In this document: piece by piece, positions 1 through 60,793 of the stretch
Position numbering within the stretch: position 1 is the stretch's first letter
Layout of the letters: each line of letters begins with the position of its first letter
Assembly: GCA_030390025.1 (NCBI GenBank)
Contig: CM059430.1
Span: forward strand, 62,248,001-62,312,000
Reading direction: 5' to 3'
DNA from: Squalus acanthias
Taxonomy: Eukaryota
DNA: 64,000 nt
Notes under the pieces: model-generated
What the model saw: only the letters and a program-made list of their open reading frames with translations
What the model was told of the DNA's origin: nothing
Database searches by the model: none
Translations under genes and position numbers: made by a program

Positions 1-3000
1 CGAGCCACGTGCAAATTGGCATAGAAGCAGTCAGATTAGAGCAGTCAGATCAGATTAGTGGCTAAAGGGATGGTGTGGGAAAGAGGGTTCCTTTTCATGG
101 GACACTGGCACCAGTACTGGGACAGGAAGTAGCTGTACCAATGGGATGGGCGCCACCTGAACCGGGATGGGACCCGTGTCCTAGCAGAAAGGGTGCATAG
201 GGACGTGGCAAAGGCTTTAAATTAGTAAGATGGGGGGAGGGATACACAAGAAATGAAACCAGCTTAAATATAAACAAAACAGGAAATGAGAGCTTAGGAA
301 AGAATAAAGTAAGGGAGTACATTGATAGCCAGGGAATAAATAGAGTTATAGAACAGGTGTGTGAAAAGATGGTTAAAAATGAAGTGAAAGTAAATGCTAT
401 TAAAAATGTCTGGACAGCACACAGTGACCGTAATAAAACAGGGGAGCTGGAGGCAATCATGCATTGTGTGGAGCCAGACATAGTTGGGATTACTGAGACA
501 TGGTTACAGAAAAATCAGGGCTGGGAATTAAAGATTGCAGGGCAGAACATATTTAGAAAAGATAGAGAGGGGAAAAGGGGAGGTGGAGTATCTGTACTTA
601 TTAGGGATATCATAATAGCAGTAGAAAAAATTGACGCAGCTATAAGCATGACAGAAATAGAATGCATGTGGATAGAGATAAAAGATGATGAAGGGTAAAT
701 CGCACTAATCGGGGTAGTCAACAGGCCACCTAATAGTGGAAGGGATGTGGAGGATGAAATATGCAAACAAATTAGGAAAATTATTAAAAAACTTAGAATA
801 ATAATCATGGGGGATTTCAACTATCCAGATATTAATTGGACAGAAGAGGTCGGTAAAGGGGATAAGGGAATGGAGTTCCTACAATGTGTACAGGACTCCT
901 TTCTAACCCAATATTTAAAAAGCCCAAGAAGGGAGGATTCGCTATTGGATCTAGTAATGGGGAATGAACCAGAGCAGATAAGAGAAGTAAAAGTAGGGGA
1001 ACATCTAGGCAATATTGACCATGATATAATACTCTTTAAAATAATAATTGAGAAGGACATAAGTATAACAAAGTCCATGGTAATATGGTAGAGAAAAGCT
1101 GAGGTTGAGGGGCTGAGAATAGAAATTGGGAAAATAAAATGGTCAAAGATATTGGCAAACAATGACATAAAACAACAATGGGAATCATTTAAAACTGTGT
1201 TCAACAGAGTCCAGGAAAAATATATTCTGCTAAAAAAACAAGAACAAGCTAAACACTACTGAGACACCATGGATGAATAAAGATATAATGGAAAATTGAG
1301 CGTAAGGAAAGAGGCATACATTAAGTACATGGACAGCAGAAGAGAGCATGATAAGGGAACATACGAGGAGATTAGGAGAGAAGTCAAAAAAAGGAAAAGC
1401 AAACAGGAACTATGAAATTAAATTTTCAAGGAACATAAAACAAAATAATAAAATATTTTACAGGCACATCAATAAAAAGGAAGGTCGAGTTGGGAATAGA
1501 GCCACTAAGGGATGGAAAGGGAAATACCACAGGCAGTGATAGAGAGATGGCAGAAATATTAAATAATTACTTTGCCTCTATATTTTCCAGGGAGATAGAA
1601 CAGGTGGATATAAGAACATCAGAACATAAGAAATAGGAGCAGGAGTAGGCCATTCGGCCCTTCGAGCCTGCACCGCCATTTAATGAGATCATGGCTGATC
1701 TTCTGCCTCAACTCCATTCACCGGCCCTATCGCCATATCCCTTGATGCCCTTACTAGTCAGAAATCTATCGACTTCTGTTTCGAATATACACAATGACTG
1801 AGCCTCCACAGCCCTCTGGGGTAGTGAATTCCAAAGATTCACCACCATCTGTTGGAAGACATTTCTTCTCATCTCAGTCCTGAATGGCCTACACTTTATC
1901 TTGAGGCTGTGGCCCCTGGTTCTAGACTCCCCAGCCAAGGGAAACATTCTCCCAGCACCATGACATTGGATCATGAGATTAGTAATTAAGTAGCTGCATT
2001 TAAAATAACAGGAGTAGATATATTAAATAAACTGATGAATCTCAAAGAGGAAAATAACCCTGGTCCAGATGGATTACATCCGTGCATTTTAAAAGAATCC
2101 AGGGAAGAGATAGCAGAGGCATTACTACACATATTTAATAATGCATAAAAAAAGGTGTAGTGCCAGAGGACTGGCAGATAGCCAACATGATACCTGTATT
2201 TATGAAGGTAGATAGAACATGTCCAGGAAACTATAGATCAGTCAGCTTAACATCGATGGTAGGAAAAATAATGGAATCGCTACTAAAGGTGAAAATAGAG
2301 GAACATCTAGAAGCCAAAAATATAATAATGAATAGTCAGCATGGATTTCAAAAGGGAAAGTCTTGTTTGAAGAAATTCGTTGAATTTTTTGAATAGTTAA
2401 TAGAGAGAATAGACAAGGGTAATACAATAGAATTAATTTATCTAGATTTTCAAAAGACCTTCTATAAAATACCACATAATAGACTAATGAATAAGGTCAG
2501 AGAATGCGGAGTCATGTGACAAGTAGCAGATTGGACAGCGAACTGGCTTCAATACAGAAAGCAGAGTGTAGGGGTAAAGGGTAGCTATTCGCAGTGGCAG
2601 AAGGTTGGTAGTGGTGTTCCACAAGGATCAGTTTTGGGACCACTGTTGTTCACAATTTATATTAACGATTTAGACTTTGGAATCAAAAACACAATTTCTA
2701 AATTTACGGATGACACCAAATTGGGTTGATAGTTAATACTTAGGAGGACTGCAACAAATTAGAGGAAGACCCCAATAATCTTGCAGAAGGGACATATAAT
2801 TGGCAAATTAAATTCAGCAGAGAGAAATGTGAGGTATTACATTTTGGTAGGAAGAATAGGTAGGTCACTTATTACTTAGAGCGTGCGAGTCTGGGTGGGG
2901 TAGAGGAACAAAGGGATCTCGGAGTACAAATACACAAATCACTTAAAGTAGCGACACAGGTTAACACGAACATAACAAATAAAGCAGGCACTAGGGTTTA

Positions 3001-3541
3001 TTTCTAGACGTATAGAATTGAAAAGTAGGGAAGTTATGCTAAACCTGTATCGAACCTTGGTTAGACCACACTTGGAGTACTGCGTACAATTCTGGTCACC
3101 ATATTATAAAAAGGATATAGAGACACTGGAGAGGGAGCAGAGAAGATTTACAAGGATGATACCAGAAATGCGAGGGTATGCCTATCAGGAAAGGATGAAC
3201 CGGCTGGGTCTCTTTTCATCTGAAAATAGTAGGCTGAGGGGTGAACTAATTGAGGTCTTTAAAATTATGAAAGGTTTTGATAGAGTAGATACAGAGAGAA
3301 TGTTTCCTTGTGGTGAGAACGTGGAATTCGCTACCACAGGGAGTAGTTAAGGCAAATAGTATAGATGCATTTAATTGGAGGCTAGATACACATATGAGGG
3401 AGTAGGGAATAGAGGGTTATGCTGACAGTGTTAGTTGAGGAAAGACGGGAGGAGGCTCGAGTGGAACATAAACGCCGGCATGGACTGTTTGGGCCGAATG
3501 GCCTGTTTCTGTGCCGTATATCCTATGTAATCCTATGTAAT
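1..3541 (+). mobile_element. Decayed CR1 LINE (end of ORF1 esterase, ORF2 endonuclease + RT, 3' tail); 5' part outside window
   Basis: ORF fragments PDIVGITETW, IIMGDFNYPDINW, NYRSVSLTS, LVRPHLEYCVQFWSP; tail atcctatgtaatcctatgtaat at ~3520-3541; many stops and frameshifts. Confidence 0.92.
1611..1959 (-). mobile_element. CR1 3' fragment inserted antisense in the CR1 above
   Basis: Starts with reverse-complemented tail taagaacatcagaacataag; ORF 1708-1974 has RTRGHSLK...VVNLWNSLP (CR1 ORF2 C-terminus). Confidence 0.88.
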
Positions 3542-3691
3542 GATACATTAAAACATGTATTTAATGCTTTCGTTGATATCTCCCACGGTATTTCTATGGA
3601 CTAACTTCATGATTGTTAGCATGTACAACCTCTACGATATATCTCTTTACGAATTGAATAGAAGCTGTTTTTTGGACTGTAGGCCTCGTAC

Positions 3692-4003
3692 CTTGGTTAG
3701 ATTTAGAAACAACATAGGTGACAGCAGCTGGAGTCTCGAGAGAGACATGAGAAACCAAACAGGTATAATTGGCGTTGCTCGGGACAGGCTGCGTCTCAGT
3801 CAAAGAGCTGCAAACTTCATACAGTCCCTCCGTCTTCTGCACTTTCCTGGTATGTATTCCTGATGCAGTTTCGACACCATTTTTATACCAAGTGAGGGTG
3901 AAATTCTCCGGAAAAAACGCAGCCGTTTCACACACAAGTGTCAGAGACGCAGGTGAATTCCCTTCAGTTGTCCTGGAGACAATCTTCAGTGGGGCTGGGG
4001 CCG
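3692..4003 (-). CDS. IgSF receptor gene 1, C1-set domain exon (312 nt, phase 1/1)
   Basis: tccgcag|CGG...AACCAAG|gtacga; TAPAPLKIV...LTLVCETAAFFPENFTLTWYKNG...YEVCSSL...YTCLVSHVSL: C1-set motifs (C-x4-F-[FY]-P, W, Y-x-C-x-V-x-H); open frame. Confidence 0.9.
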
Positions 4004-4535
4004 CTGCGGAGCAGAGAATAAACAAAGTTGGTTTACTGGGCACCATTGCGAGAAATTAAATATGATTCTGATTTGCCTTCGGTCCATTATATTATCATAC
4101 CACCATTACAAATCACAGCATCTTGTCATGTTAATGTCGATCGACAGTTCCGACGGGCCACAGCGAAAAACCGCATAGACCTCCTGAGAAGACGAACACG
4201 GGACACAACCAACAGAGTACCCTACGTCGTCCAGTACTTCCCCGGAGCGGAAAAACTACGCCATGTTCTTCGCAGCCTTCAACATGTCATCGATGACGAC
4301 GAACACCTTGCTAAGACCATCCCCACGCCTCCACTACTCGCCATCAAGCAGCCGCCTAACCTCAAAAGTACCATCGTTCGCAGCAGATTCCCCATCTTTC
4401 AGGAGAACAGCAACCAAGATACAACACAACCCTGCCACGGCAACCTCTGCAAGACATGCCAAATCATGGACACAGATACCATCATCACACGTGAGGACAC
4501 TACCCATCAGGTACACGGTACATACTCATGTGACT

Positions 4536-4789
4536 CATAGAAACATAGAATCTAGGAGCAGGAGTAGGCCATTCGGCCCGTCGAGCCTGCTCCACCATTC
4601 AATACGATCATGGCTGATCATTCAAATCCAGTACCCTGTCCCTGCTTTAATCCCCACAGTACACATATCCCACCCTAGCCCCGTAACCCCACGTATTTAA
4701 TTCCCCCTAACATATCCCATGCTATCCCCATAACCCCACATATTTAATCCCCCCCCCCTAACACTAAGGGTCAATTTATCATAGCCAAA
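4536..4789 (-). mobile_element. 5'-truncated SINE with CR1-type tail (HE1-like) interrupting the Penelope GIY-YIG frame
   Basis: catagaaacatagaa tail; the host frame tcatgtgactc|ggccaacgtt is split at this point. Confidence 0.7.
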
Positions 4790-5341
4790 TCGGCCAACGT
4801 TGTCTACCTGATACGTTGCAGTAAAGGATGCTCCAGAGCATGGTACATCGGCGAGACCATGCAGACACTGAGACAACGTATGAACGGACACCGCACAACA
4901 ATCGCCAGGCAGGAGGGTTGCCTCCCAGTCGGGGAACACTTCAGCAGCCAGGGGCATTCAGCCTCGGATCTGCGGGTAAGCGTTCTCCAAGGCGGCCTTC
5001 GGGATACACGACAGCGCAAAATCATAGAGCTGAAACTGATAGCCAAGTTCCGCACTCATGAGGATGGCCTCAATCGCGATATCGGGTTCATGTCACGATA
5101 TAGAACGTGACTTGACATCATGGCCGGTCTTCCCAGGTGTTTTTTTTTAAAAAGACTAACACAAGAACCAACACAAATTGACAGGTTATGCAGCCAGCAG
5201 GTGGTTTGACACGTTGGACCCCCTGGGACACATCTCATTGTCTTGGCTGTGCTCTTAGTGTGTCTTTGATGTAGGGAAAGATTTGAATAGATTTTGTCTG
5301 TGTTTAAATTGTGAATTCTGGGAGATTCTCTCACTGCTAAC

Positions 5342-5380
5342 TTACCTGAGGAAGGAGCGAACCGCTCCGAAAGCTTGTAA
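5342..5380 (+). ncRNA. Minimal type I hammerhead ribozyme in Penelope pseudo-LTR
   Basis: TTAC-CTGAGGA-A-GGAGCG AAC CGCTCC-GAAA-GCTT-GTAA: CUGAnGA and GAAA cores, stem I TTAC/GTAA, stem II GGAGCG/CGCTCC, palindromic AAGCTT stem III. Confidence 0.8.
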
Positions 5381-6395
5381 AATTAAATAAATCTGTTGGA
5401 CTATAACCTGGTGTTGTGCGACTTCTCATTTTTGTCTACCCCAGTCCAACGCCGGCATCTCCACATCATGTTAATGCTATGCATGCCATCTACACACACC
5501 CTATCCTTATCTCTCGTAGATTCCGGCATCTGTTCAAATTTACTTGCGCCATCAAGTCCAAGACTTTGAGTTACTCAGCAGTTACTCAGACATCGCAACG
5601 ATTGCTAATCTATGTTTGCGTTTCATAGTCCCAAGTATTAAATAATTAAACCCTGAGGTTAAGTTGGCGCGCCGAGACCCTCCGTGTTTGTCACTCATAG
5701 ATTGACAGTGAGGTATAATCTGCATTTTGTAGATGATAAAACGAGGGCTTGGTAGATATCGGACAGATCTCACAGCCGAAGCATGACATTTTCTGAATGA
5801 AATTATGCTCGGTTGAACCTCAGGAGGTTTCGGTAACACAGTTCTTCTGTATTGTTTTATTTATTGGAGGTTAGTGAGGTGACAAAATTGTGTGTTCCAA
5901 GCTCCAGTTTGATGAGTGAAGCCGTTGATCAACAGTTAGTTTTACGCCGGCTTTCTAATCCCTGACGCTAACATTATGTGAGAATTAATTTCAGGAATGT
6001 TAAACCGCAAAGACAGCGATGGAGGCTGACAGAGCATCAGAAATGGGCCAAGATGTATATGTTGAGTGAGACGCATTAATACAAACGATTTTCAGTCAGT
6101 TATATGCTTGGAATTTGTTCCGAACTTCCGCTATTAGACATCAGGTGGAAAAATTGTTGCGTTATAGTCAAATTTGTTAATATTGATAAATTTTGCAATA
6201 CTCTGCCTGTTACAATGAATATCTAATTAGCAGTTCGCACAGAGCACACGAATATACAACTTTACTTATCGCGAAATGTATCAATAGACATGTTTATACT
6301 GCCAAAAGCGATGCAATAAAGCAATCACAAAGCATCCCGGTTTGTTATGTTCGATATATTTTCGACTGTGCCGCTCTCCTGTGTTTAACACTTAC

Positions 6396-6716
6396 TATGC
6401 ACAATTAGATGTGATCCGCTTCCATTTCCTCGAATTATTCCTTGATGGAGCACTGCGCACTGATAGACTCCAGAGTCTTGGAAAGTCGCGCTCAGCAACT
6501 GAAAGAACCCGCTCCCTTTACTTTTCAGACCAAATCGTTTTCTGTTATCCGCGCCTGTGCGCAGGTATTCATTCTCACCCTGTTTCCACCAATACACTCT
6601 GACCCAGGAATTGTCCTGGGAGATGGGGAATATGCAGTAGAAGGTGATGTTCCCTCCTCTGGATACAGTCGCTTGTTTGGGCGCTTGAGTCACTCTGAAC
6701 GAAATCTGGTCCGCTG
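6396..6716 (-). CDS. IgSF receptor gene 1, V-set exon with germline J-like end (321 nt, phase 1/1)
   Basis: ctgacag|CAG...GTGCATA|gtaagt; AADQISFRVTQAP...ITFYC...VYWWKQ...DSGVYQCAV...GNGSGSHLIVH; open frame. Confidence 0.9.
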
Positions 6717-6885
6717 CTGTCAGAAAATATAGTCAAGTACAGGTTAATTGTATTAGACACGTCATGGAGTTGGAAGAGAGAAAAATAATCTAAATATAGG
6801 GAGCACATTTCACTAAATTAGTGTGAAAACTATCTCGGAATCATTTTATAAATTAAAGTAGCTGCGATAATGAATAAAGAGGTAC

Positions 6886-6940
6886 CTGTGTAAATAATCC
6901 CCCGGAGAGTCAGGCACAGGAAAAGCAAAGTCGCCGACAT
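6886..6940 (-). CDS. IgSF receptor gene 1, leader exon MSATLLFLCLTLRGIIYT
   Basis: ATG at 6940, hydrophobic 18 codons + 1 nt, donor ACAG|gtacc; homologous to the leader exon at 60733-60793. Confidence 0.85.
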
Positions 6941-7209
6941 TCTGAGCAACAGATTCAACTGATGACTCTCTGCAGTAACTGCGAGTTTGCAACTGTTAAG
7001 AATGGTTTGCGGTTAGTTTTCAATGAGATACGTCGCAATGACGTTTAACATCATGTAATAGCGGGTTCAGAATTTCGGCTTCGTTTGTGTAGTAGGATTT
7101 TTTAACTTCTGCACTTAAATCGACTGCTGGAATCATATGTGTGACAGACAGCAAAGAGTAAAGCAATATATTTGATTTTCAAATGCAGAATTTACTAACA
7201 TTCGTGGAG

Positions 7210-8030
7210 TGTTTCCTGACAAGTGACGGCTGTCTAAGCAGGTTGGATACAGAGGAAAAGCGTTGGAGAATGGTGGTTTGGTTGACCACGTCAAAAGAGA
7301 GTTCAAACGAACATAAAATGAGATTACGCACCATGGTCACAGTCACACTTACTGTAATTAATGGCCGTTTTGGTTTTGCGTGAAAGGTAGAAAACTGAGT
7401 GGAGAGGTTAAATCAGGAACTGGTGGGGACCTAGGCACGCATCTGGGAGGTGACAACAGGTTCACTGTTTTAAAGGAAGTTGGAGATTTGGTGGCAGTTT
7501 GCAAGGAGAGAGCTGGCGAGTGTGAGTTTATTGAGAATGGGTGACCATATCTGTGTCCAAACGAAACGGGACAGTCTCTACTTATCATTTATAATTTTAG
7601 CTATCATGGAGGCCAGAAAAGGAAGTTGGGTGGTCAGCGGTTAAATCCGATTGAGGTCTATGAATCAGGAGGTGTTTGATGTGGATTAGATGAGTGCATG
7701 TGGGGAAGAAGGAAGACAAATACACGGAAACAGGGATTCAGAGGTACGGTATGACAGGGAAGCGAGATTTGGCCTGATGTGCAAGGGGAAAGGAGGAAGC
7801 AGTAGATGTAGCTGAGCGGAAGGTCTCTATTTGATGTCAAATAAACTCATGAGGTCTGTGAACTTAGTGGATAAAGTTTCAATATGTGGTTGGTAGAGGG
7901 GGAAAGAAACGGTAGGTTACTATTGATCTCCAGTACAATTGCAGAGCAGTGGGCAGTTGCGGCAGAGAACAGTGAGACTCTGCAAGGCTTCACATGGTCC
8001 AGCCAGATCTGGCCTTGGATGTGTTTTAAG
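7210..8030 (-). mobile_element. Highly decayed LINE fragment (L2-like RT region)
   Basis: Minus-strand remnants such as LSFDVVNQTTILQRFS resembling RT AFDTVDH.ILL.RL, and QIWLDH. Confidence 0.5.
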
Positions 8031-11789: not shown

Positions 11790-13152
11790 CATTAAGCAGT
11801 AGCAGGGCATTTGGAAAATCATAATGCAGTCAAGCAGAGTCAGCATGGTTTTATGAAGGGAAATCATGTTTAACAAACTTGCTGGAGTTCTTTGAGGATG
11901 TAACGAGCAGGGTGGACAAAAGTGAACCAGTGGATGTGGTGTATTTAGATTTCCAGAAGACATTGGATAAGGTGCCACATAAAACGTTACTGCATAAGAT
12001 AAGAGCTTACGGAATTGGGGTTAATATATTAACATGCATAGAGTATTGGCTAACTAACAGAAAGCAGAGAGTCGGGATGAATGGGTCATTTTCCGTTTGG
12101 CAAACTGTAACTAGTGGGGTGCCACAGGGATCAGTGCTGGGGCCTCAACTATTTACAATCTACTTTAATAATTTGGATTAAGGGACCGAGTGTAATGTAG
12201 CCAAGTTTGCGGATGATACAAAGATGGTTGGGAAAGCAAGTTGTGCAGAGGACTCAAAGAACCTGCAAAGGGATATAGACAGGCTAAGTGAGTGGGCAAA
12301 CATTAGGCAGATGGAGTATAATGTGGGAAAGTGCGAGGTTATACACTTTGGCAGGAAAAATAAAAAAGTTAATTATTATTTAAATGGAGAGGGATTACAA
12401 AATGCTACAGTTGAGAGGGACTTGGGGGTCCTTGTGCATGAAACACAAAAGGTTAGCATGCAGGTACAGCAAGTAATCAAAAAGGTAAATGTAATGTTGG
12501 CCTTTATTTCAAAGGGGTTGGAGTATAAAAGCAGGGAAGTTCTACTACAACTGTACAGGGTATTGATGAGACCACACCTTGAGAACTGCGTACAGGTTTG
12601 GTCTCCTTATTTAAGGAAGGATATACTTGCATTGGAGTCAGTTCAGTGACGATTCACTAGGTTAATTCCAGAGATGAGAGGGTTGACTTATGAGGAAAGG
12701 TTGAGCAGGCTGGGCCTATACTCATTGGAATTTAGAAGAATGAGTGGTGATCTTATTGAAAAATATAAGATACTGAGGGGGCACGACAAGTTAGATGCAG
12801 AGAGGATGTTTCCCCTCGTGGGGAAATCTAAAACGCGGGGGTACAGATTTAGAATAAAGGGTAGCCCTTTTAGAGCTGAAATGAGGAGGAATTTCTTCTC
12901 TCAGAGGGTCGTAAATCTGTGGAATTCTCTTCCCCAGATAGGTGTGGAGGCTGGGTCATTAAATACATTTAAGGTGGAGATAGACAGATTTTTACAAGAT
13001 AAGTCAGTGAAGGGTTATGGGGTGTGGGCGGGGAAGTGGCTTTGGCCCAAGATCAGCCATGATCTTATTGAATGGCGGAGCAGGCTCGAGGGGCCAGGTG
13101 CCCTATTCCTGCTTCTATTTCTTATGTTCTTCTGTTCTTATTATCTTATGTT
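11790..13152 (+). mobile_element. 5'-truncated CR1 LINE
   Basis: [34 protein letters not shown]; tail ttcttatgttc. Confidence 0.92.
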
Positions 13153-13154
13153 CA

Positions 13155-13255
13155 GGTGTCTGACCCGGGGGACTATAACAATTACGGATAAATAGACCCT
13201 GCCCGTGAGCTTGGTATACTTGACCCCAGAGAGCCTCAGCTGTATGGCTGTAAAT
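13155..13255 (-). mobile_element. Middle piece of the minus-strand CR1 endonuclease
   Basis: AEALWGQV...LFIRNCYSPPGQ resembles the EN segment E.LWV...IG.CYRPP. Confidence 0.65.
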
Positions 13256-14830
13256 CCCCAGGCCCGGATGAAATGTATCCCACGCTGCTAAGCGAAACAA
13301 AAGAGGAAATAGCAGAGGCCCTGACCATCATTTTTCAATCCTCTCTGGCTTCAGGTGTGGTGCCTGGAGACTGGAGGACTGCTAATGTGGTGCCCTTGTT
13401 TAAAAAGGGAGAAAAGGATAGACCGTGTAATTACAAACCAGTCAGCCTAACCTCGGTGGTAGGAAAATTGTTGGAAAGAATTCTGAAAGACAGGATAAAT
13501 CTTCATTTAGAAAGACACGAATTAATCAAGTATAGTCAGCATGGATTTGTTGAGGGAAGGTCGTGTCTGATAAACTTGATTGGATTTTTTGAGGAGGTAA
13601 CAAGGAGGGTTGATGAGGGTAGTGCGTTTGATGTAGTGTATATGGACATTAGCAAGGCTTTTGATAAGGTTCCACATGGCAGACTGGTCACGAAGTTAAA
13701 AGCCCATGGCATCCAGGGCAAAGTGTCAAGTTGGATTCAAAACTGGCTCGGAGACAAGAAGCAGAGAGTAATGTTTGAAGGGTGTTTTTGTGACTGGAAG
13801 TCTGTTTCCAGTGGAGTTGCGCAGGGCTCAGTACTAGGTCCCTTGCTTTTTGTGCTATATATCAATGATCTAGATTTGAATATAGGGGGTATGATTAAGA
13901 AGTTTGCAGATGATACTAAAATCGGCTGTGTGGTTGATTCTGAAGAAGGAAGCTGTCGACTGCAGGAAGATATCAATAAATTGGTCAGGTGGACAGAACA
14001 GTGGTAAATGGATTTCAATCCGGAGAAGTGTGAGGTAATGCATTTGGGGAGGGCTAAAAAGGAAAGGGAATACACATTAAATGGTAGGACACTGAGTACT
14101 GTAGAGGAACAAAGGGACCATGGAGTGCATGTCCACAGATCCCTGAAGGTAGCAGGCCAGGTAGATAAGGTGGTTAAGAAGGCATACGGAATGCTTGCCT
14201 TTATGAGCCGTTGCATAGAATACAAGAGTCGCGGGGTTATGCTTCAACTGTATAAAACATTAGTTAGGCCTCAGCTAGAGTACTGCGTGCAGTTCTGGTC
14301 ATCACATTACAGGAAAGGTGTGATTGCACTAGGGAGGGTACAGAGGAGATTTACAAGGATGTTGCCGGGAGTAGAGAATCTTAGCTATGAGTAAAGACTG
14401 GATAGGTTGGGTCTGTTTTCCTTGGAACAGAGGAGGATGAGGGGAGTCATTATTGAGGTGTATAAAATTATGAGGAGCATAGATAAAGTGGATAGAAAGG
14501 AACAATTTCCCTTGGCAGAGGGGTCAGAAACTAGGGGGCACAGATTTAAAGTTATTGGTGGAAGGTTTAGAGGGGATTTGAGGTGAAATGTCTTCGCCCA
14601 GGGGGTTGTGGGGGTCTGGAACTCACTTCCTGAAAGGGTGGTAGAGGCAGGAACCCTAATCACATTTAAAAAGTACTTGGATGTGCATTTGGGATGCTGT
14701 AACCTGCAGGGCTACGGACCAAGAACTAGGAAGTGGGATTAGGACGTTAGCTCTTTATTGGCCGGCGCCGACACGACGGACCGAAATGGCCTTCTTCTGT
14801 GCTGTAACTTTCTATGAGTCTATGATTCTA
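13250..14830 (+). mobile_element. 5'-truncated CR1 LINE (RT + C-terminus)
   Basis: ORF 13273-14007 with RT motifs (YMDISKAFDKVPH, QGSVLGP, FADDTK); tail ttctatgagtctatgattcta. Confidence 0.93.
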
Positions 14831-24699: not shown

Positions 24700-26745
24700 A
24701 TAAACATAAGAACATAAGAAATAGGAGCAGGAGCAGGCCATTCGGTCACTCGAGCCTACTCCGCCATTTAATGAGATCACGGCTGATCCGATTTTGGCCT
24801 TAACTCCACTTTCCTGCCCGCTCCCCATAAGCCTTGCCTCCCCTGTTGCTCAAAAATGTGTCCATCTCAGCCTTCAATATATTCAATGACTCAGCTTCCA
24901 CAGCGTTCTGGGGTAAAGAATTCCAAGGATTCACGACCCTCTGTGAGAAGAAATTCCTCCTCATCTCCGACCTCTTAAATGGCGACCACTTATTCTGAGA
25001 TTATGCCCCCTAGTTCTAGATTCCCTGACGAGGGGAAACCTCCTCTCATCATCTACCCTGTCCAACCCCCTCAGAACCTTATATGTTTCAATAAGATCAC
25101 CTCTCATTCTTCTGAACTCCAATGAGTATAGGCCCAAACTGTTCAAGTTTTCCTCATAAGACAACCCTTCCATCCCAGGAATCAACCCAGTGAACCTTCT
25201 CTGAACTGCCTCCAATGCAAGTATATCCCTCCTTAAATAAGTGGTCCAAAACTGTACACAGTACTCTTGGTGTGGTCTCACCAGTTGTAGCAAGACTTCC
25301 CTACTTTTATACTCTATCCCCCTTGAAATAAAGGTCAACATTCCATTTGCCTTCCTAATTACTTGTTTCACCCGCATGATAACTTTTTGTGTTTCATGTA
25401 CGAGGACACACAAATCCCTCTGTACCGCCGCATTCTGTCGTCTTTCTCATTTTAATTAATATTTTTATTTTCTATTCTTCCCACCAAAGTGGATAACTTC
25501 ACATTTTCCCACATTATACTTGATCTGCCAAATTCTTGCCCACTCACTTAACCTATCTATATCCCTTTGCAGACTCTTTATGTCCTCCTCACAAATTGCT
25601 TCCCCACCTATCTTTGTATCGCCCGCAAATTTGGCTACAATACATTTGCTTCCTTCATCCAAGTCATTAATATAGATTGAAAATAGTTGAGGCCCCAGCA
25701 CTGATTCTTGTGGCACCCCACTAGTTACAGATTGCTATCCTGAAAATGACCCATTTATCCCGGCTCTCTGTTTTCTGTTAGTTAGCCAATCCTCTATCCA
25801 ATCTATTATATTACCCGCAACACCATGAGCTCGTATCTTATGCAGCAACCTTTTATGTGGCACCTTGTCGAATGCCTTTTGGAAATCCAAATACACTACA
25901 TCTATTGGGTCCCCTTTATCCACCCTGCTCGTAACCTCTTCAAATAACTCAAATAGATTTGTCAAACACGATTTCCCTTTCTTAAAACCATGTTGACTCT
26001 GCTTGATTCTATTATGATTTTCTAAATGCCATGCTACTACTTCCTTAATCATGGATTCGAGGATTTTACCAATGACAGATGCAAGGCTAAGCGGCCTATA
26101 GTTTCCTGCATTCTGTCTCCCTCCTTTTTTGAATAAGGGCGTTACATTTGCGGGTTTCCAATCCACAGGGTCTTTTCCAGAGTCAAGGGAATTTTGGAAG
26201 ATTACAACCAATGCATCCACTATCTCTGTAGCCACTTCTTTTATGTATGCAGACCATCAGGTCCAGGGGACTTGTTAGCCTTTAGACCCATAATTTTTCC
26301 TCGCACTTTTTCTGAATTATAGTGTTTGTTTTAAGTTCCTTCCTCCCTTTTGCCCCTTGATTTTCTACTATAACTGGGATGTTTTTAGTGTCCTCTACTG
26401 TAGAGACAGATCAAAATATTTGTTCAAATCCTCTGCCATTTCCTTGTTTCCCATCTTTTCCCCAGTGTCGTCCTCTAAGGGACCAACGTTTATTTTAGCC
26501 ACTCTCGTCCTTTTTATATACTTGTAGGGGCTCTTACTGTCAGTTTTTATATTTCTTGCTAGTTTACTCTCATAAGCTATTTTCTCCCTCTTTAATATTT
26601 TTTAGTCATTCTTTGCTGGTTCCTAACATTTCCCAATCTTCTGGCCTACCACTAATCTTTGCAATGTTGTATGCCTTTACTTTCAATTTGATACCATCCT
26701 TAACTTCCTTTGTTAGGCATCGTTGGTTCACCCTTCTCTTCGAGT
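24700..26745 (-). mobile_element. 5'-truncated CR1 LINE
   Basis: ORFs 25735-26235, 25465-25716, 24961-25413 with RT motifs; tail aacataagaacataag. Confidence 0.92.
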
Positions 26746-28238: not shown

Positions 28239-28441
28239 TTACAAAAGCAAAACACTGCGGATGCTGGAAATCTGAAATAAAAACAGAAAATGCTGGAAAC
28301 ACTCAGCGGCTCAGGCAGGATCTGTGGAGAGAGAAACAGCGCTAACGTTTCAGGTCGATGACTTCATATTAACTCCACTTCCATCTCCACAGATGGTGCC
28401 GGACCTGCTAAGTGTTTCCAACATTTTCTGGTTTTATTACA
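28239..28441. mobile_element. Short Penelope-derived element with inverted arms and 10-bp TSD
   Basis: Arms aaaacagaaaatgctggaaacactcagc / gctaagtgtttccaacattttctggtttt; GGATTGTCTG at 28229-28238 and 28442-28451; related pieces at ~26755-26855, 46778-46870, 59880-59995, 62500-62620. Confidence 0.75.
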
Positions 28442-53045: not shown

Positions 53046-53159
53046 CTTTATTAATCTGCAATTGGCAGTGCGTTCCAATGATGAACAGGAGCAGCAGAAA
53101 CGCTAATCCACTCACAGCATATCTAAAACTCGAGTAGTAAGGGTACATTCCGAAGCTAT
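53046..53159 (-). pseudogene. IgSF gene 2, transmembrane exon (114 nt, phase 1/1)
   Basis: cttacag|AT...AAAG|gtaac; DSFGMYPYYSSFRYAVSGLAFLLLLFIIGTHCQLQINK. Confidence 0.75.
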
Positions 53160-53344
53160 CTGTAAGAATAATACGAGCAAATATATTAAGTTGCACATTG
53201 TGGCGGGCGTTTCCTAAAAAGAGGCCTCAGCAGGGTTCACTGGTTAAACTATTGATGCTTTTAGTTACTCTATAGTATAGAACAGCAATAATGATGTTTT
53301 AATTAAAAAAAATATTTTTTAGATATAATATTGAGAGGGACTTA

Positions 53345-55818
53345 TTCATCTAATGGAAGAGACAATGATGGCATAAACCGAAAAGAGAGTTTGCTGTAGG
53401 TGGACGATCATGGAATGCATTCGGGACAGTTTCTTAGAACAATATGTCATCGAACCAAACAGGGAACAGGCTATTTTAGATCTTGTGTTGTGCAATGAGA
53501 AAGGGTTAATTAGCAATCTCATAGTAAAAGATCCTCTAGGCACAGTGATCATAATATGATAGAATTTCACCTTAATTTTGAATGTGACTTGCATAAGTCC
53601 GAAACTAGAGTCTTAAACTTAAATAAAGCTAATTACATAGGTATGAGGGGCGAGTTGGCTAAGGTACATTGGAAAAATAGATTAAAAGGTATGCTGGTAA
53701 ATACGCAGTGGCTAGCATTAAAGAAATATTTCATAATTCTCAAGAAAAATACGTTCCATTGAGAAACAAAAATTCCATTGGAAGAGTGATCCAACCGTGG
53801 CTAAGTAAAGAAGTTAAGGATAGCAATAGATTGAAGCTTATAATGTTGCATATAATAATAGTAAGCCTGAGGATTGGGAGGGTTTCAGAAACCAGCATAG
53901 GTTGACCAAAAAATTGATGAAAAGGGAAGAAATAGCATTCGAGAAAACCAGAAAGAAATATAAAAGCAGATTGTAAGAGCTTCTACAAGTATGTAAAAAG
54001 GAAGAGAGTAGCAAACGTAAACTTTGATCCCTTAGAGGCTGAGACAGAGAAATTATTATGGGGAACAAGGAAATGGCAGAAACGTTAAACAAATATTTTG
54101 TATCTGTCTTCACAGTAGAAGACATAAAAAGCATACCAAAAATGATGGAGAATGAAGGGTCTAATGAGGGTGAGGAACTTAACGTAATTAATATAAGTAG
54201 AGAAAAAGTACTCGAGAAAATAATGGGACTAAAAGCCAACAAATCCCCTAGACCTGACGGCCTACAAGCTGGGGTTCTAAAAGAGGTGGCTGAAGAGATA
54301 TTGGATGCATTGGTTTTGACCTTCCAAAATTCCCTAGATTCTAGAATGGTCCCAGCGGATTGGAAGATCGCAAATGTAACACTGCTATTCAAGAAAGGAG
54401 GGAGGGAAATATAGGCCAGTTAGCCTGACATCAGTCATCGGGAAAATGCTGGAATCCATTGTTAAGTAAGTGTTGTCAGGGCACTTAGAATCATAACATG
54501 ATTAGGCAGAGTCAACATGGTTTTGTGAACGGGTAAATGTGTTTGACAAATTTATTAGAGTTTTTTGAGGATGTAACTAGCAGGATAGATAAAGGGGAAC
54601 CAGTGGATGTAGTATATTTGGATTTACAAAAGGCATTCGATAAGGTGCCACATAAAAGTTTATTACATAAGGTTAGAGCTCATGCGGTTGGGGGTAATAT
54701 AGTAACGTGGATAGAGGATTGGTTAATGGAGAGAAAATAAAGAGTAGGGATAAATGGATCTTTTTGAGGTTGGCAGGCTGTAAAAAGTGGGGTGATGCAA
54801 GGATCAGTGTTGGGGCCTCAGCTATTTACAATCTATATTAATGACCTAGATGAAGGGTTCCGAGTGTAATGCATCCAAATTTGCTGATGATATAAAGCTA
54901 GGTGGGACAGTAAGCTGTGAGGAGAGCACAAATAGTCTGCAAACGGATACAGATAGACTAAGTTAGTGGTCAGTAAGGTGGCGGATGGAGTATAATGTAG
55001 GCAAATGTGAGGTTATTCACTTTGGTAGGAAGAATAGAAAAACAGAGTATTTTTTAAATGGTGCCAAAATTTGAAATGTTGGTGTTCAGAGAGATTTGGG
55101 TGTCCTCGTGCAAGAAACACAGAAAGCTAGCATGCAGGTACAGCAAGCAATAAGGAAGGCAAATGTCATGTTGGCCTTTATTGCAAGGGGGTTGGAGTAT
55201 AAGAGTAAGGAAGTCATACGATAATTTTACAGGGCCTTGGTGAGAGCACACCTGGAGTGCTGTGCACAGTTTTGGTGTCCTTATCTAAGGAAGGGTATAC
55301 TTGCCTTAGCGGCGGTGCAACAAAGGTTCACTAGATTGAATCCTGGTTTGAGAGGGCTGTCCACTGTTGAGAGATTGTGTAGAATAGGACTATACACTCT
55401 GGAGTTTAGAAGAAACGGAGGTGATCTTCTTGAAACATAAAGATTCTGAAGGGGATTTACAGGGCAGATGCTGAGAGGTTGTTTCTCCTTGCTGGATTGT
55501 CTAGAACTAGGGGGCATAGACTCAGGATAAGGGGTCGGCCAATTAAGACCGAGATGAGGAGGAATTTCTTCACTCAGAGGGTTGTGAAGCCTTGAAATTC
55601 TCTTCCCCAGAGTGTTGTGAATGCTGAGTCTTTCAGTATATTCAAGGCTGAGATAGATAGATATTGGGACTCTAGGGGGAATCAAGGGATAAGGAGTTCG
55701 GGCGGTGAAGTGGAGTTGAGCTCGATGATCAGCCATGAACTTATTGAATGGCGGAGCAGGCTCGAGGGGCCGTAGGGCGTACTCCTTGTCCTATTTCTTA
55801 TGTTCTTATGTTCTTATG
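53345..55818 (+). mobile_element. 5'-truncated CR1 LINE in the C1-TM intron
   Basis: RT motifs YLDLQKAFDKVPH, VRAHLECCAQFW; tail ttcttatgttcttatgttcttatgt. Confidence 0.92.
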
Positions 55819-57744
55819 TACTATACGAGAGGAATGATTCCCTGGACCGAATGGTTTGCACTTATCCTTCACTTTTTTATGTTCTTTACTTATTGCCTGA
55901 TGTAATCTGAGGCAATTCGGTGACAATTGTTTCGCCGTTCCCTGTACAAAATGCCAAATTGCAGAAATCGGTTAAAACCCCCTGTTCACACACCAATACT
56001 TTATTGAATGTGATTGAATAGTGAAGGAGATGGTTTATTAATTATTGTCTGCCGAGGTTAGCATTTCTTAATAAAATGAAGTAACCAGCTGAAAATAGTC
56101 AGACAGAAAGCACAGTTTAAATTAAATGTATGAGACAGATCCCACTTCAGCCCGCTGTGCCAGGATTAGAAGTTGGCCAAAGGGTTAATTTCAGAACTCT
56201 TCTTTCAGAATCACCAAAAAGCGGATCAGGATCGGGAACTGCATTGGGGGAAACCCGAGAGCACACAACTTGACCGTAGCTCCAGGTAATCGTCCAGATG
56301 AAGGAAAACCAAATAACGGTAATGAATAAACATTTTAACATGGGAACAAAACAAAGAGTAACAATCAGCAAAATATGAAATATAATCGGATACCAAAGAT
56401 AAGCCTCATGTTTATATGTGTTAGGTATCAAATACAGGAATACAAAGCTAATAATATTTTACTGAGAATGTTTGTATGGCGGACGATATAACCGGGTTTA
56501 CAGCACATTGGATTCCATTATACATTAAAACATGAATTGTATGTGTTCGTTTATATTCCTATGAATGTTCCGTGTATTTCAGCAACCGTTCAAAAACACG
56601 TCCTTAATTGCAGTTCCTTATGAAAAGATTTCCTTTTGTGCTGTCCTATCTATCTTTGACTTCAACCTTCTTCTTTCTTAATCATTCTATTTGTATGTTT
56701 GTCACACAATTTATTTACTGTGGTGTCTGTAAATGTCGACAGAGTACCTTTTTGCATTTTGTCTGTTTCACTCCTAATGAATGAAATCTTTATTATTTCT
56801 CTCCTTAGGTCCTTCCAATTGTTGTGTATTGGCTCCCACACAAGTTCAATTTTTAATGTACTCAATATCTATCTCTGACCTTTGTTTATGGTCCTAGTGA
56901 TGTGGGAAGGTGGAAGACAACATGTACTAGGTGAAACAGGCTTTTGGAGAGGTGATGCAAGATGGAGAGTTGAGAGAGAAAATGGGTGGGGAGACTGTGT
57001 GGCTGGAAGGGGTGTAGGCAGCGCTGTGGCCAGGACGAAAGAATGGGATATATTTCGATCATGAAAGTTGGAAGGGAAGGTAGGCTTGAGCAGAATGGAA
57101 GAAGGTACGAACTAGGATTAATTATGTCGTGTGTGGGAGTGCTGGGATTTGGAAACCTGTGGGAATTTAGCGTGTGTTCTTGGTTGGTCGGATTATCCGG
57201 CACCGGGGGGTAGAAGGCCATTGCGTAACTGAAATGTGAAACCTGGGAACCTTGGAAATGAGGTTGTGCTTCGGAGTAAGTGACGGTGTAAAAGCCCTCA
57301 CACTGAATCGCCCATCAGAGGCCGGACTCAGGAGCCGCAATGGGAGACACTTGAGACCAGAGAACCGAACTGCTGCTCCTGGTCCTGCAACTCATGTAAG
57401 GAACCAGATAATGGAAAAAGAATGGATGTTGAGTAATAAGAAAGACATGAAAATAATTGGATAGAAGAGGTACGTCGCCTGCTCATATTTGTGTTAACAA
57501 TTGGAGGCTGATGAGGTTTCACAGGCAGTTACTGGCTGAGGACGATAATAATCATTCGGTTTTACATCGGTTCCGTGTCAATAAGATTTTTACATTGAAA
57601 CATTAATTTTCTCTTTGCTTTGATATTTCCCGAGAGATTATTTTTAAACTATCTTTATGATTATCATTATGAACAAACTCTATGAACTACCCTTTCAGAA
57701 TATAACAGGAGCTAATCTCACTTCTTGGCCTGTTGGCCTCTTAC

Positions 57745-58056
57745 CTGGGTCGGAATTAGTAACAGTGTGGATGGTAATGGCGGGAGTTCCGAAGGAGACA
57801 TGAGATACCAAACAAATGTAAACAGCCCCATTCGGCACAGGCTGCGTCTCTTCCAAAGAGCTGGAAACTTCATAAAGTCCCTCAGTGTTCTGCCGTTCAG
57901 TGGAATTGATCGCAGTTGCGGTTTCGACGCCATTTTTATACCAAACGAGGGTTAATTCGCCCGGGTAAAACCCAGCCGTTTCACACACAAGAGTCAGAGA
58001 CGCAGCTGAATTGCTCTCGGGTGTCCTGGAAACAATCTTCACTGGAGTTGGAACAG
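57745..58056 (-). pseudogene. IgSF gene 2, C1-set exon (312 nt, open frame)
   Basis: gctgcag|CT...CCAG|gtaaga; LTLVCETAGFYPGELTLVWYKNG...YICLVSHVSF; about 63% aa identity to the gene 1 C1 by manual alignment. Confidence 0.88.
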
Positions 58057-58109
58057 CTGCAGCACAGAGAATGGAGAAAATCAGGTTACTGGGGGATATT
58101 AAACGTAAG

Positions 58110-58771
58110 GGCCCAGAAATTCGGGTCTCCAGGGGTGAGTACGCATTGTGTACTCACCCGTAAGGCCAACGAAAGTGCCGGTTTCGCGCATGCACTGCGC
58201 ATGCGCTGGAGCCGGAATTTCCGTTCCCTTGAAGGAAGGGGTTCACAGGTCAAACGCGTGCGCCTTGCTTTTAACAAGGTAAGAGGTGAATTTAGTAGAA
58301 TTGAAGCATTTTTTTCACAGGTGTATCTTTTTTAAATACTTTAAATGAAGGTAAGTTTATTTTTAGCCCCGTTAAAAACTTTAATAAATTTTGTCAAAAA
58401 TTCTAATTTGTGTTTAAAATAGTTAATTTATGTAATTTATAGTTATTTTAAAAATGTGATTTTTTTTTAAATGTATTTGAAGTTTTACTTAGGTTTTGGG
58501 GCCGATCTCTATTCATAGATTTGACAGGCCTTTCTGTCAAATCTATGAATGGAGATTCCCTGCTCCAATAGGCTCACAATGGCCCACGTGATCCCAGTGG
58601 ACACTGAAAACTAGCTTCACCACTGGGATACGCGAGCACTGCACACCGGCAGCTGGAGGAGGCCCAGGATCGGAATCACACAGTGGCCCACAGCACAATA
58701 GCAGGCGCGCTATGTAAGTGCAGGTCGGGGGCTTGCGCCCGTGGCAAGCCTCCGACCTGAATTTCTGGGTC
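58110..58771. mobile_element. Harbinger-type MITE with AAG TSD
   Basis: aag|GGCCCAGAAATTC...GAATTTCTGGGTC|aag. Confidence 0.88.
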
Positions 58772-58809
58772 AAGATATGGGAGAAGAATCGTATCCTCAA
58801 TGGTTCCCT

Positions 58810-59685
58810 TTTTCTAATTAGTTCACGGGATGTGGGCGTCGCTGGCAAGGCCAGCATTTATTGCCCATCTCTAATTGCCCTTGAGCAGAAGGTGCTGAAC
58901 TGCCTTCTTCAACCGCTGTAGTCCGTGGGGTGAAGGCACTCCCATAGTGCTGTTCGGGAGAGAGTTCCAGGATGTTGACCCACCGACAATGACGGAACGG
59001 CGAAATACTTCCAAGTCAGGATGCTGTGGAACATGGAGGGGAACCTGCAGGTGATGGTGCTCCCATGCGCCTGTTGTCCCATGCGCCTGTTGCCCTTGTC
59101 CTACTAGGTGGTAGAGGTCGCGGGCTTGGGAGGTGCTGCCGAAGAAGCCTTGGTGAGTTGCTGCAGTGCATCTTGTAGATGGTACACACTGCAGCCACGG
59201 TATGCCGGTGGTGAGTGAGTGAATATTTAAGGTGGTGGATGGGGTGCTAATCAAGCGGGCTTCTTTGTCCTGGATGGTCTTGAGCTTTTTGATTGTTGCT
59301 GGAGCTGCCGTCATCCAGACAAGTGAGAGTATTCCACAACACTCCTGACTTGTGCCTTGTAGATGGTGGAAAGGCTTTGGGAGTCAGGAGGTGAGACACT
59401 CGCTGTAGAATTTCCGGCCTCTGACCTGCTCTTGTTGCCACAATATTTATGTGGCTGTTCCAGTTAAGGTTCTGATCAATGTTGACCCCCAGGATGTTGA
59501 TGGTGCGGGATTCGGCGATGGTAATGCCGTTGAATATCAAGGGGCGGTGGTTAGACTTTCGCTTGTGGGAGATAGTCAGTGCCTGGCACTTGCGTGGTGC
59601 GAATGTTACTTACCACTTTTCAGCCCAAGCCTGAATGTCGTCCAGGTCTTGCTACATGCGGGTATAGACTGCTCATTATCTGAGG
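58810..59685 (-). mobile_element. 3' fragment of the second LINE family
   Basis: Reverse-complement match to ~20050-20870. Confidence 0.85.
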
Positions 59686-60218
59686 TAGTTAGTTTGTAGT
59701 AACTCTAGGTTTTGTCTCCCCATGAGAACCGTGTATATGGCGCGCGCCACCCATTAATAGAAAATATTTTCAGAAAGTCTTCAATGTATTTGGTTTTGTG
59801 CCGCATCGTCCATCATTAGAAATGTGTCGTAAAAACTACATTTTGAGATGAATCCAGTAACATGTTACTTACGACAAGTGAGAGACCTGAAACATTAACT
59901 CCTTTTCTCTCTCCACTCATGCTGCCTGAACTGTTAACTATTCCAGCTTTTTCTGTTTATATTTCAGATTTCCAGCATCCGAAATATTTTGCCTTTTTAA
60001 CATAGTACTTAATCTGGTTAATATTCATGGAATTATACACAACTCAGCAAATGAAACGTCATATTTTGCCGTATAATTACCAATTGTGTGCAGAGTTTCA
60101 CTCTCAATGTACAAATATACTTTTAATAATATCAAAGACGGAGCAATTAAACAATGACAAAACATCATCCTTGTCACAGTTGATACATCTGGCCGTTCCC
60201 GCTCACTCCGGTCATTAC

Positions 60219-60539
60219 CGCACACAGTTACAGGTGATCCTGTTCCATTTCCAATAATTCTTCCCTGACGGATCACTGCGCAGTGATGGATTCCAGAGTT
60301 CTGGAAAGTCACGTTCATCAACTAAAAGAAACCGCCTCCTTTCTTTTTCTGAAAAAAATCGTTTTCTGTTATCGGCTCCTGTTTGCAGATATTAATTCTT
60401 AACCTGTTTCCACCAACGCACTTCTACCCCCGAATTGTCATGAGCAAGGGGGATTACGCAGTGGAAGGTGATGTGTGTCCCCTTAATTTAATTACTTGTT
60501 CGGGAGTTTGAGGCACGCTGATCGAAGTACGCGCAACAG
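60219..60539 (-). pseudogene. IgSF gene 2, V-set exon, disabled
   Basis: Aligns to the gene 1 V exon; 1-nt deletion before ITFHC, TAA after WWKQVKN, 1-nt insertion in a T run, TAG before LMNVTFQ; ends GNGTGSPVTVC G|gtaat. Confidence 0.88.
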
Positions 60540-60732
60540 CTGTTAGAAAATATATTAAAAGTTTGGTTAATTGTATTCCATGCGGAACCAAAAACTTTAA
60601 AATGCATTTCTACATGGAAATGAAAAAGGCAAAGAAGAATACAGACGGACTAACTATATTTAATTCAATTTGTTAGATAACTACTTCAGATTTTTTAAAT
60701 TCAGACAGTTGGGATAGAGAATAAACAGGTAC

Positions 60733-60793
60733 CTGTGAAAATGATCCCCGGGAGAGACAGGAACAGGAAAAGAAACAGCACAATCGACAACAT
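60733..60793 (-). pseudogene. IgSF gene 2, leader exon MLSIVLFLFLFLSLPGIIFT
   Basis: ATG at 60793, donor ACAG|gtacc, phase 1. Confidence 0.85.

Follow-up and report, generated by a model that had tools for sequence, protein, structure and literature searches.

What does a shark gene encode that joins an antigen-receptor-type V domain to a single C1 domain in the germline? Sharks are the oldest lineage with antibodies, T cell receptors (TCR) as well as a major histocompatibility complex (MHC), and to our knowledge few diversified innate leukocyte receptors other than NKp30 have been identified in them. The gene examined here lies on the minus strand near the left end of a 64,000-nucleotide stretch of Squalus acanthias DNA (the window, G000 C6 62248001-62312000 of a 3.7-Gb genome, C6 being contig CM059430.1). 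On balance we consider its product likely to be an activating receptor, which would signal through an FcR-gamma or CD3-zeta adaptor with immunoreceptor tyrosine-based activation motifs (ITAM) and be paired with paralogues that carry immunoreceptor tyrosine-based inhibitory or switch motifs (ITIM/ITSM). The combination of a transmembrane (TM) arginine with a lost inhibitory tail makes this focal gene the likely activating partner of near-identical inhibitory neighbors.

Exons of the focal gene

Three exons of the gene lie in the window, all on the minus strand. The leader (signal peptide) exon at 6886..6940 (55 nt) runs from the ATG to a phase 1 donor, G followed by GT, and is followed by a single V exon of the VJ type at 6396..6716 (321 nt) and a C1-set exon at 3692..4003 (312 nt), both bounded by AG and GT and both in phase 1. 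The intron 3' of the C1 exon (1..3691) continues past the left end of the window. Spliced together, the exons give 229 open codons across canonical GT-AG junctions, in agreement with the initial annotation, which had described three open phase 1 exons with canonical splice sites.

The leader resembles the N-termini of homologues P0001, P0003 and P0006. The V exon matched the Pfam V-set model (E 1.8e-9) and the C1 exon the C1-set model (E 5.6e-12), each over the curated cut-off, so that the earlier call of a true C1-set exon was borne out. The V domain is short, with 60 residues between its cysteines, and is 75% identical to three shark RefSeq models. Its exon includes the G-x-G strand, with Asn at the site of the J-segment Phe/Trp, and an alignment of 43 V exons keeps both glycines in 90% or more. 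A scan of window positions 3001-7500 with the recombination signal sequence (RSS) consensus pattern returned no exact heptamer and no RSS-like match; the gene thus reads, as first described, as a single-exon VJ with Asn in the G strand and no RSS.

The initial annotation had pointed to the left of the window for the TM and tail exons, and we located them there, in L031 (G000 C6 62238001-62248000), with homologous proteins as guides. The TM exon (114 nt, L031 8062-7949, minus strand, about 2 kb left of base 1) is intact, with an open frame and splice sites on both sides, and it places an Arg at the helix's outer end. The exons that follow, which encode the tail, are decayed. Compared with the intact paralogue L042, the first cytoplasmic exon (L031 7550-7462, minus strand) no longer has a donor, a frameshift precedes the tyrosine of the first ITIM exon, and the last exon has an early stop and no acceptor; these ITIM/ITSM remnants and a polyadenylation-like site lie at about L031 6837-6246. 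Read-through past the dead donor to a stop is predicted to yield a protein of 296 residues whose tail, about 35 residues long, lacks an ITIM. In the 24 kb up to the next V exon we found no further TM exon and no intact tail exon. Disabled 3' exons, which the initial annotation had regarded as evidence against an intact gene, are therefore present in the distal tail, while the TM exon is sound. As predicted from sequence, the product is a type I membrane protein composed of leader, VJ domain, C1 domain, Arg-bearing TM helix and short tail.

Two transmembrane classes and probably exchanged ectodomains

The focal gene belongs to a large cluster. Among 150 scored matches each, the V query gave 133 matches, 128 of them on C6, and the C1 query gave 150, both counts being lower bounds. 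After split matches were merged, 118 V and 126 C1 exons remained on C6, at 57.5, 61.1-62.8, 67.4-68.2 and 72.4-76.9 Mb. For 117 of the 126 C1 exons a V exon lies within 25 kb upstream, almost always in one-to-one pairs, and the focal gene is one of about 120 V-C1 units on C6. For 114 of these C1 exons, 10 kb was searched for TM and tail exons, and other stretches covered most of the remaining 12. A TM exon was identified for 94 genes; V, C1 and TM were all available for 78.

One TM column holds either Arg or a small or aliphatic residue, mostly Gly, and the two classes differ in their tails. We tabulated 92 genes, leaving out 2 of the 94 for a stop in the TM and setting two rows by hand (an ITIM missed by the motif pattern, and an Arg on a truncated match). 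The last ITIM/ITSM exon was present in 2 of 38 Arg genes and in 26 of the 54 others (Fisher p 6e-6), and the contrast persisted in the 67 genes with a match or at least 6 kb examined (p 6e-5). Independent pairs taken from starred branches of the C1 tree ran in the same direction, on average 8 to 0 (median p 0.008). When 14 non-Arg genes were followed for roughly another 10 kb, ITIM exons came to light in 8, bringing the total to 34 of 54, a figure that is biased because only two Arg genes were extended; neither of those two had an ITIM exon in the added sequence, and one had a further TM-like exon. An extra TM-like exon of the non-Arg type lies about 11 kb downstream of an Arg-type gene in L234 (~G000 C6 76808300), with no V or C1 match beside it in that stretch, and may be either a remnant or an alternative TM cassette.

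The same division was seen outside this genome. Among protein models of other species (83 of the 136 examined had C1 and TM and a distinct TM-tail), an ITIM-like motif occurred in 3 of 16 with Arg and 43 of 67 without (p 0.002), and the catshark model P0005 combines the TM type of the focal gene with a very short tail. Arg stands at this column in several unrelated TM types and is encoded by five different codons. The differing TM types and codons of the other subfamilies suggest that it was probably gained more than once. Divergent members at G000 C6 57.55 and 61.26 Mb (L061, L063, L233) have a distinct Trp-rich, Cys-rich TM, a type also present, with no ITIM, in the other-species models P0078, P0082, P0086 and P0114.

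The ectodomains do not follow this division. The V proteins of an Arg gene at 61.92 Mb and an ITIM gene at 62.05 Mb are identical (99.4% at the nucleotide level); the two genes are 93.6% alike over 2.9 kb of leader, V and C1 and 68-79% alike downstream. The focal gene is 83-92% alike to the 61.92 Mb gene over the main aligned blocks. Within the focal C1 clade of 26 genes, the ten Arg TM regions group together as a single clade (98/95), whereas on the C1 tree the same ten genes are scattered among ITIM genes, requiring 7 changes, and their C1 monophyly was rejected (p-AU 2e-55). These ten genes carry common tail lesions, and their tail remnants are only about 70% like the intact exons. Clustered genes with similar ectodomains thus divide into those with ITIM tails and those with a charged TM and short tail, and ectodomains have been homogenized between the classes, two features of paired receptors. 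We infer from these sequences that one old short-tailed cassette was repeatedly fitted with the ectodomains of inhibitory neighbors.

In the mechanism we propose, the TM Arg of the focal receptor would pair with the transmembrane Asp of an adaptor, and the inhibitory ITIM/ITSM members would recruit SHP phosphatases. Repeated gene conversion or recombination would transfer the ectodomains of inhibitory genes onto activating cassettes, and both classes would thereby see the same ligand; the driver of this matching would probably be pathogen mimicry of a self ligand. The genome does contain FcR-gamma-like and CD3-zeta-like TM exons with the Asp, which of them is which being our own reading. A TM arginine is essential for FcR-gamma association in receptors of the leukocyte receptor complex (LRC; PMC6557307), and in LRC and Xenopus FcR-like receptors it is an Arg near the outer TM end that mediates the association (PMC6557307, PMC2413239).

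Several observations weigh against an activating receptor of this kind. The NxxR motif of known FcR-gamma-coupled receptors was found in none of the 38 Arg TMs, and an acidic residue near the inner end occurs in 14 of the 38 and is absent from the focal TM. The focal Arg sits on the margin of the hydrophobic stretch, where 19-residue windows with and without it score 2.03 and 2.08; since they score alike, the Arg may sit outside the bilayer. With NxxR missing and the Arg at the helix edge, coupling to an adaptor is something we infer rather than observe. A complex prediction in which the TM exon was combined with the FcR-gamma TM exon in two copies gave no verdict in either direction (score 0.11, the mark being 0.34). 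Tail loss and Arg are also imperfectly matched, as 20 non-Arg genes have no detected ITIM exon and two Arg genes retain the last one (in one the preceding tail exon contains a stop, and in the other that exon has no match). The missing NxxR, the Arg at the helix edge and the non-Arg genes with no detected ITIM exon would suit a non-signaling, short-tailed decoy or adhesion form that competes with the inhibitory paralogues for ligand and whose Arg is juxtamembrane. We regard such a form as unlikely, because Arg recurs at the one column across unrelated TM types, codons and several species, and nearly always together with tail loss.

Other points against an activating receptor concern whether the gene is alive at all. 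Many copies in the family are broken: V, C1 and TM are open throughout in 54 of the 78 genes (21 Arg, 33 non-Arg). In the window itself a second copy (53047..60793, minus strand) is a probable pseudogene, with a leader at ~60793, a V exon with a frameshift and stops at ~60220-60540, an open C1 at 57749-58051 and an Arg-type TM at ~53047-53145. The closest copy of the focal gene, L037 at C6 67.73 Mb (97% nucleotide identity, intron included), has lost its TM exon and first tail exons to a deletion and is either a soluble V-C1 form or a pseudogene; its loss of the TM indicates that the family sheds dead or soluble copies. We saw no transcript of the focal gene in three presumed-RNA contig sets of little gene coverage, which mainly covered repeats (leader and V depth 0, C1 at trace depth, exon-exon joints 0) and carry no weight either way. 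Finally, uncorrected pN/pS was about 0.9 over 18 V exons of two subfamilies, so that purifying selection is not shown at that depth.

Could the gene then be an inhibitory receptor that recently became a pseudogene, beginning with its tail exons? Its broken tail, its lack of RNA support and its broken neighbors would be as expected. The nature of the damage would not: the remnants are far diverged from intact exons and have lesions common to ten genes, and decay common to ten paralogues is better explained by a short-tailed class than by the death of one gene. The leader, V, C1 and TM exons are moreover open with intact splice sites, and the dN/dS ratios of TM and V both stay under 1. The ten Arg TM exons give 0.37; for V the value is 0.36 when the focal gene is set against five close paralogues, 0.36-0.46 within a group of six close genes and 0.46 across 62. 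Taken with the pN/pS above, selection on V is mixed. Loop-wise pN/pS gave no clear sign of selection restricted to complementarity-determining regions. The catshark model, with the same TM type and a short tail, also speaks against a pseudogene. We therefore think a recent pseudogene quite improbable and retain the short-tailed activating receptor as our reading.

Phylogenetic placement and genomic setting

A search with the family profile gave 46 matches, all 46 of them chondrichthyan and all bearing automatic names only. Named species with a homologue number 15 and take in sharks, rays and chimaeras, with Callorhinchus at one end and skates and rays at the other. The RefSeq names of the homologues are inconsistent (SIRP, tapasin, CD276, IgL, MHC II, B7-H6, PD-L1), and the family is accordingly hidden under misleading labels rather than unseen. 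In the open literature we found no account of it; subscription papers on VJ-C1 genes, PRARP, shark NCR3 and the elephant shark genome may mention it. With about 120 units and exclusively chondrichthyan matches, the suggestion of the initial annotation that the gene is a member of an expanded, poorly characterized cluster of non-rearranging cartilaginous-fish receptors was upheld.

To what is this family related? The structural comparison was made with a model of the homologue P0002 (75% identical), not of the window's gene, built from an 82-sequence alignment at pLDDT 80 (a 6-sequence alignment gave 45). The model shows two Ig domains and a TM helix. Its top fold match was B7-H6 (4zso; Z 16.1, rmsd 4.3, 192 aligned), in a tie with Rst, PD-L2 and others at Z 15-16. 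Taken singly, the V domain best matched a skate VNAR (Z 14.6, rmsd 2.0, 99 aligned), and the C1 domain matched MHC class II and Ig constant domains (Z about 15). Apart from a handful of TCR chains, nearly everything that Foldseek matched was a Fab light chain (TM about 0.3). Searches of solved structures with the V alone were unspecific, and NKp30 was not listed among their matches, which does not exclude it.

The VJ-C1 architecture has been proposed for the antigen receptor that preceded RAG, an implication the initial annotation had raised, and a germline-joined IgL or TCR gene, or an UrIg-type relic of the gene that RAG invaded, would have the same layout. In some sequence searches of solved structures the leading matches, too, are UrIg2 and antibody chains; with the family profile, the first four included an IgA chain, SIRP-alpha and UrIg2. 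We compared the C1 domains in a tree with seven IgL, two IgM, two NAR and three UrIg-like domains, the labels of those from this genome being assigned by eye; neither this tree nor that of the V domains held TCR, NKp30, NITR or PRARP sequences. The family C1 formed its own clade (99/99) outside Ig, IgL and UrIg (98/98) and is 25-31% identical to the IgL C domains of this shark. Its sister group was poorly supported, the family adjoining the Ig/UrIg clade at 49/26 and 60/69. In the V tree a clade with UrIg-like V was rejected (p-AU 0.01). The gene therefore does not fall inside a germline-joined IgL clade, a placement that would have counted against the initial annotation, and lies outside IgL, IgH and UrIg alike. 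The pre-RAG implication itself was not supported: the UrIg-like V clade was rejected, the V is short, and the family's contig differs from those of the MHC class I, IgH, IgL and UrIg-like matches. Given these results, and the TM and ITIM tails of the family, we find a germline-joined antigen-receptor gene or UrIg-type relic very hard to credit. Membership in IgL or IgH was rejected on the C domain outside the Ig clade and on the ITIM tails, and membership in UrIg/UrIg2 on the single C1 in place of three or more, on the V tree and on the location of the UrIg-like exons, on C3 and C3243.

A better case can be made for regarding the family, whatever its signaling, as the true orthologue of SIRP in Chondrichthyes, at a translocated locus and short of one C1. 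SIRP-alpha was second in the family-profile search of solved structures and its clusters were the top look-alikes of P0002 in the ESM Atlas. Pig and lungfish SIRP-like proteins were among the best non-shark matches, the order of ITIM/ITSM motifs is similar, and no better SIRP candidate turned up in this genome. A clade with SIRP was neither recovered nor rejected (p-AU 0.30 for C1, 0.26 for V). Set against this, the family has one C1 and not two, and its V profile scored about 22 bits against pig SIRP V, compared with 52 against a coelacanth V-C1 protein and 60 against a viper multi-V receptor. SIRP-beta has a central Lys in its TM, unlike the outer Arg here. In human, SIRP lies beside NSFL1C at 20p13; the NSFL1C-like gene of this shark, the closer p47 match, is on C11, SEP-domain matches fell on C11 and C8 and none on C6, and the 100 kb examined at the C11 gene contained no Ig-like exon. 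We consider SIRP orthology doubtful, though it deserves to be kept in view. The coelacanth and viper proteins, the former at 82/74 (weak), were also nearest in the V tree. They are P0170, a coelacanth V-C1-TM protein, and P0171, a viper protein with three V domains and ITIM-like motifs, whose V domains scored best against the shark family profile; both are possible bony-vertebrate relatives, judging by sequence. A search with P0170 matched nothing but itself.

The setting of the cluster is likewise distinct. None of 50 MHC class I matches lay on C6, many being on unplaced contigs. Between the sub-clusters, at C6 64.24 Mb, lies an E2F4-like exon with 36 residues identical to human E2F4. On one side C6 carries three Iroquois-type genes (43-44.5 Mb), six cadherin tails (0.5-31 Mb) and a FOXL1/FOXC2/FOXF1-like triple at 11 Mb, and on the other POU3F4-like and SOX3-like genes at 91.6 and 132 Mb; we take these to be the genes named and their human positions to be 16q and Xq. 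Searches for opioid precursor, chemokine, RHD and bZIP genes found none near the cluster. IgL-, IgH- and UrIg-like C1 exons fell on C13, C75, C3553, C29, C3 and C3243.

Some other features of the genome were noted in passing. UrIg/UrIg2-like V and C1 exons are present in several copies, L175-L180 (C3 132.08-132.13 Mb), L191 (C3 158.84 Mb) and L060 (C3243), the last contig having many repeated C1 exons. Arrays of near-identical tandem pairs of C1-like exons, B7-H6-like by our own reading, occupy L051-L059 and L183 (C1615, C10 45.6 Mb), and a short tandem repeat lies in an intron of the E2F4-like gene (L215 5464-5900, C6 64.24 Mb). The window contains retroelement-like interspersed repeats at 1-3300, 4100-5560, 11800-14800, 24700-26700 and 30400-33600, with open frames of 421 and 450 codons in the repeats at 30418-33615, and a 170-bp inverted repeat at 28272-28442.

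Comparison with known receptor systems

Together these data lead us to view the family as a chondrichthyan paired receptor family with VJ-C1 ectodomains, which would work in a SIRP- or LRC-like manner. More tentatively, and as a possibility on which we would not yet rely, this undescribed and ancient germline VJ-C1 family of more than 100 genes may be the main diversified paired leukocyte receptor system of cartilaginous fishes, a counterpart of KIR, LILR and NITR built from antigen-receptor-type domains outside the MHC, Ig/TCR and SIRP loci, with an adaptor-binding Arg gained more than once and ectodomains matched by conversion. A family of some 120 VJ-C1 genes in which activating-type and inhibitory members are matched, and which has homologues from chimaera to rays, offers concrete candidates for innate receptors, and the identical V domain on opposite signaling cassettes is a ready experimental pair. 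A large non-rearranging VJ-C1 family away from the MHC and antigen-receptor loci also bears on how much weight the architecture alone should carry as a pre-RAG sign.

NKp30 has a single-exon VJ, a TM Arg and an ITAM adaptor. NKp30 (NCR3) is MHC-linked and has no C1, whereas the shark gene has a C1 exon between V and TM; the two were set apart by description, and this intervening exon excluded NKp30 membership. In NITR the V is followed by an I-type domain, and membership was rejected on the second domain of the shark gene, which is C1-set. The exons of this genome that we labeled B7-H6-like (C10, C1615) formed a C1 clade separate from the family.

PRARP or VJ-C1 genes, said to have been described by Fu et al. 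in 2019 in tetrapods and bony fish, are reportedly non-rearranging and carry ITIM/ITSM. PMC10751288 places PRARP in the MHC, as against the position of the shark family on C6 around E2F4, away from the MHC class I matches. According to PMC12227049, UrIg and UrIg2 (PDB 9dmx) are elasmobranch genes with a non-rearranging single-exon VJ followed by C1, as in the shark family, but UrIg is secreted with three C1 and UrIg2 has nine in nurse shark, compared with one here, and both are linked to the MHC or AgRC, their like in this genome being on C3 and C3243.

SIRP (SIRP-alpha 2wng, SIRP-gamma 4i2x, the pig SIRP-beta-like P0165 and the lungfish P0166) shares with the shark family a joined VJ and C1-set ectodomain and a tandem cluster of inhibitory ITIM/ITSM members and short-tailed members with a charged TM, and RefSeq often names the shark genes after it automatically. 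It differs in its V-C1-C1 ectodomain, compared with V-C1-TM in the shark family, which also has about 120 genes and a short V and lies off the NSFL1C contig.

The ectodomains of LRC and Xenopus FcR-like (XFL) receptors are built of C2-type Ig domains. According to PMC6557307 and PMC2413239, LRC and XFL receptors form the same two classes as the shark family, outer-Arg members with short tails and uncharged-TM members with tyrosine-motif tails, in large birth-and-death families with domain shuffling; they differ in having NxxR in the TM, which none of the 38 shark Arg TMs has, and the shark ectodomain is VJ-C1.

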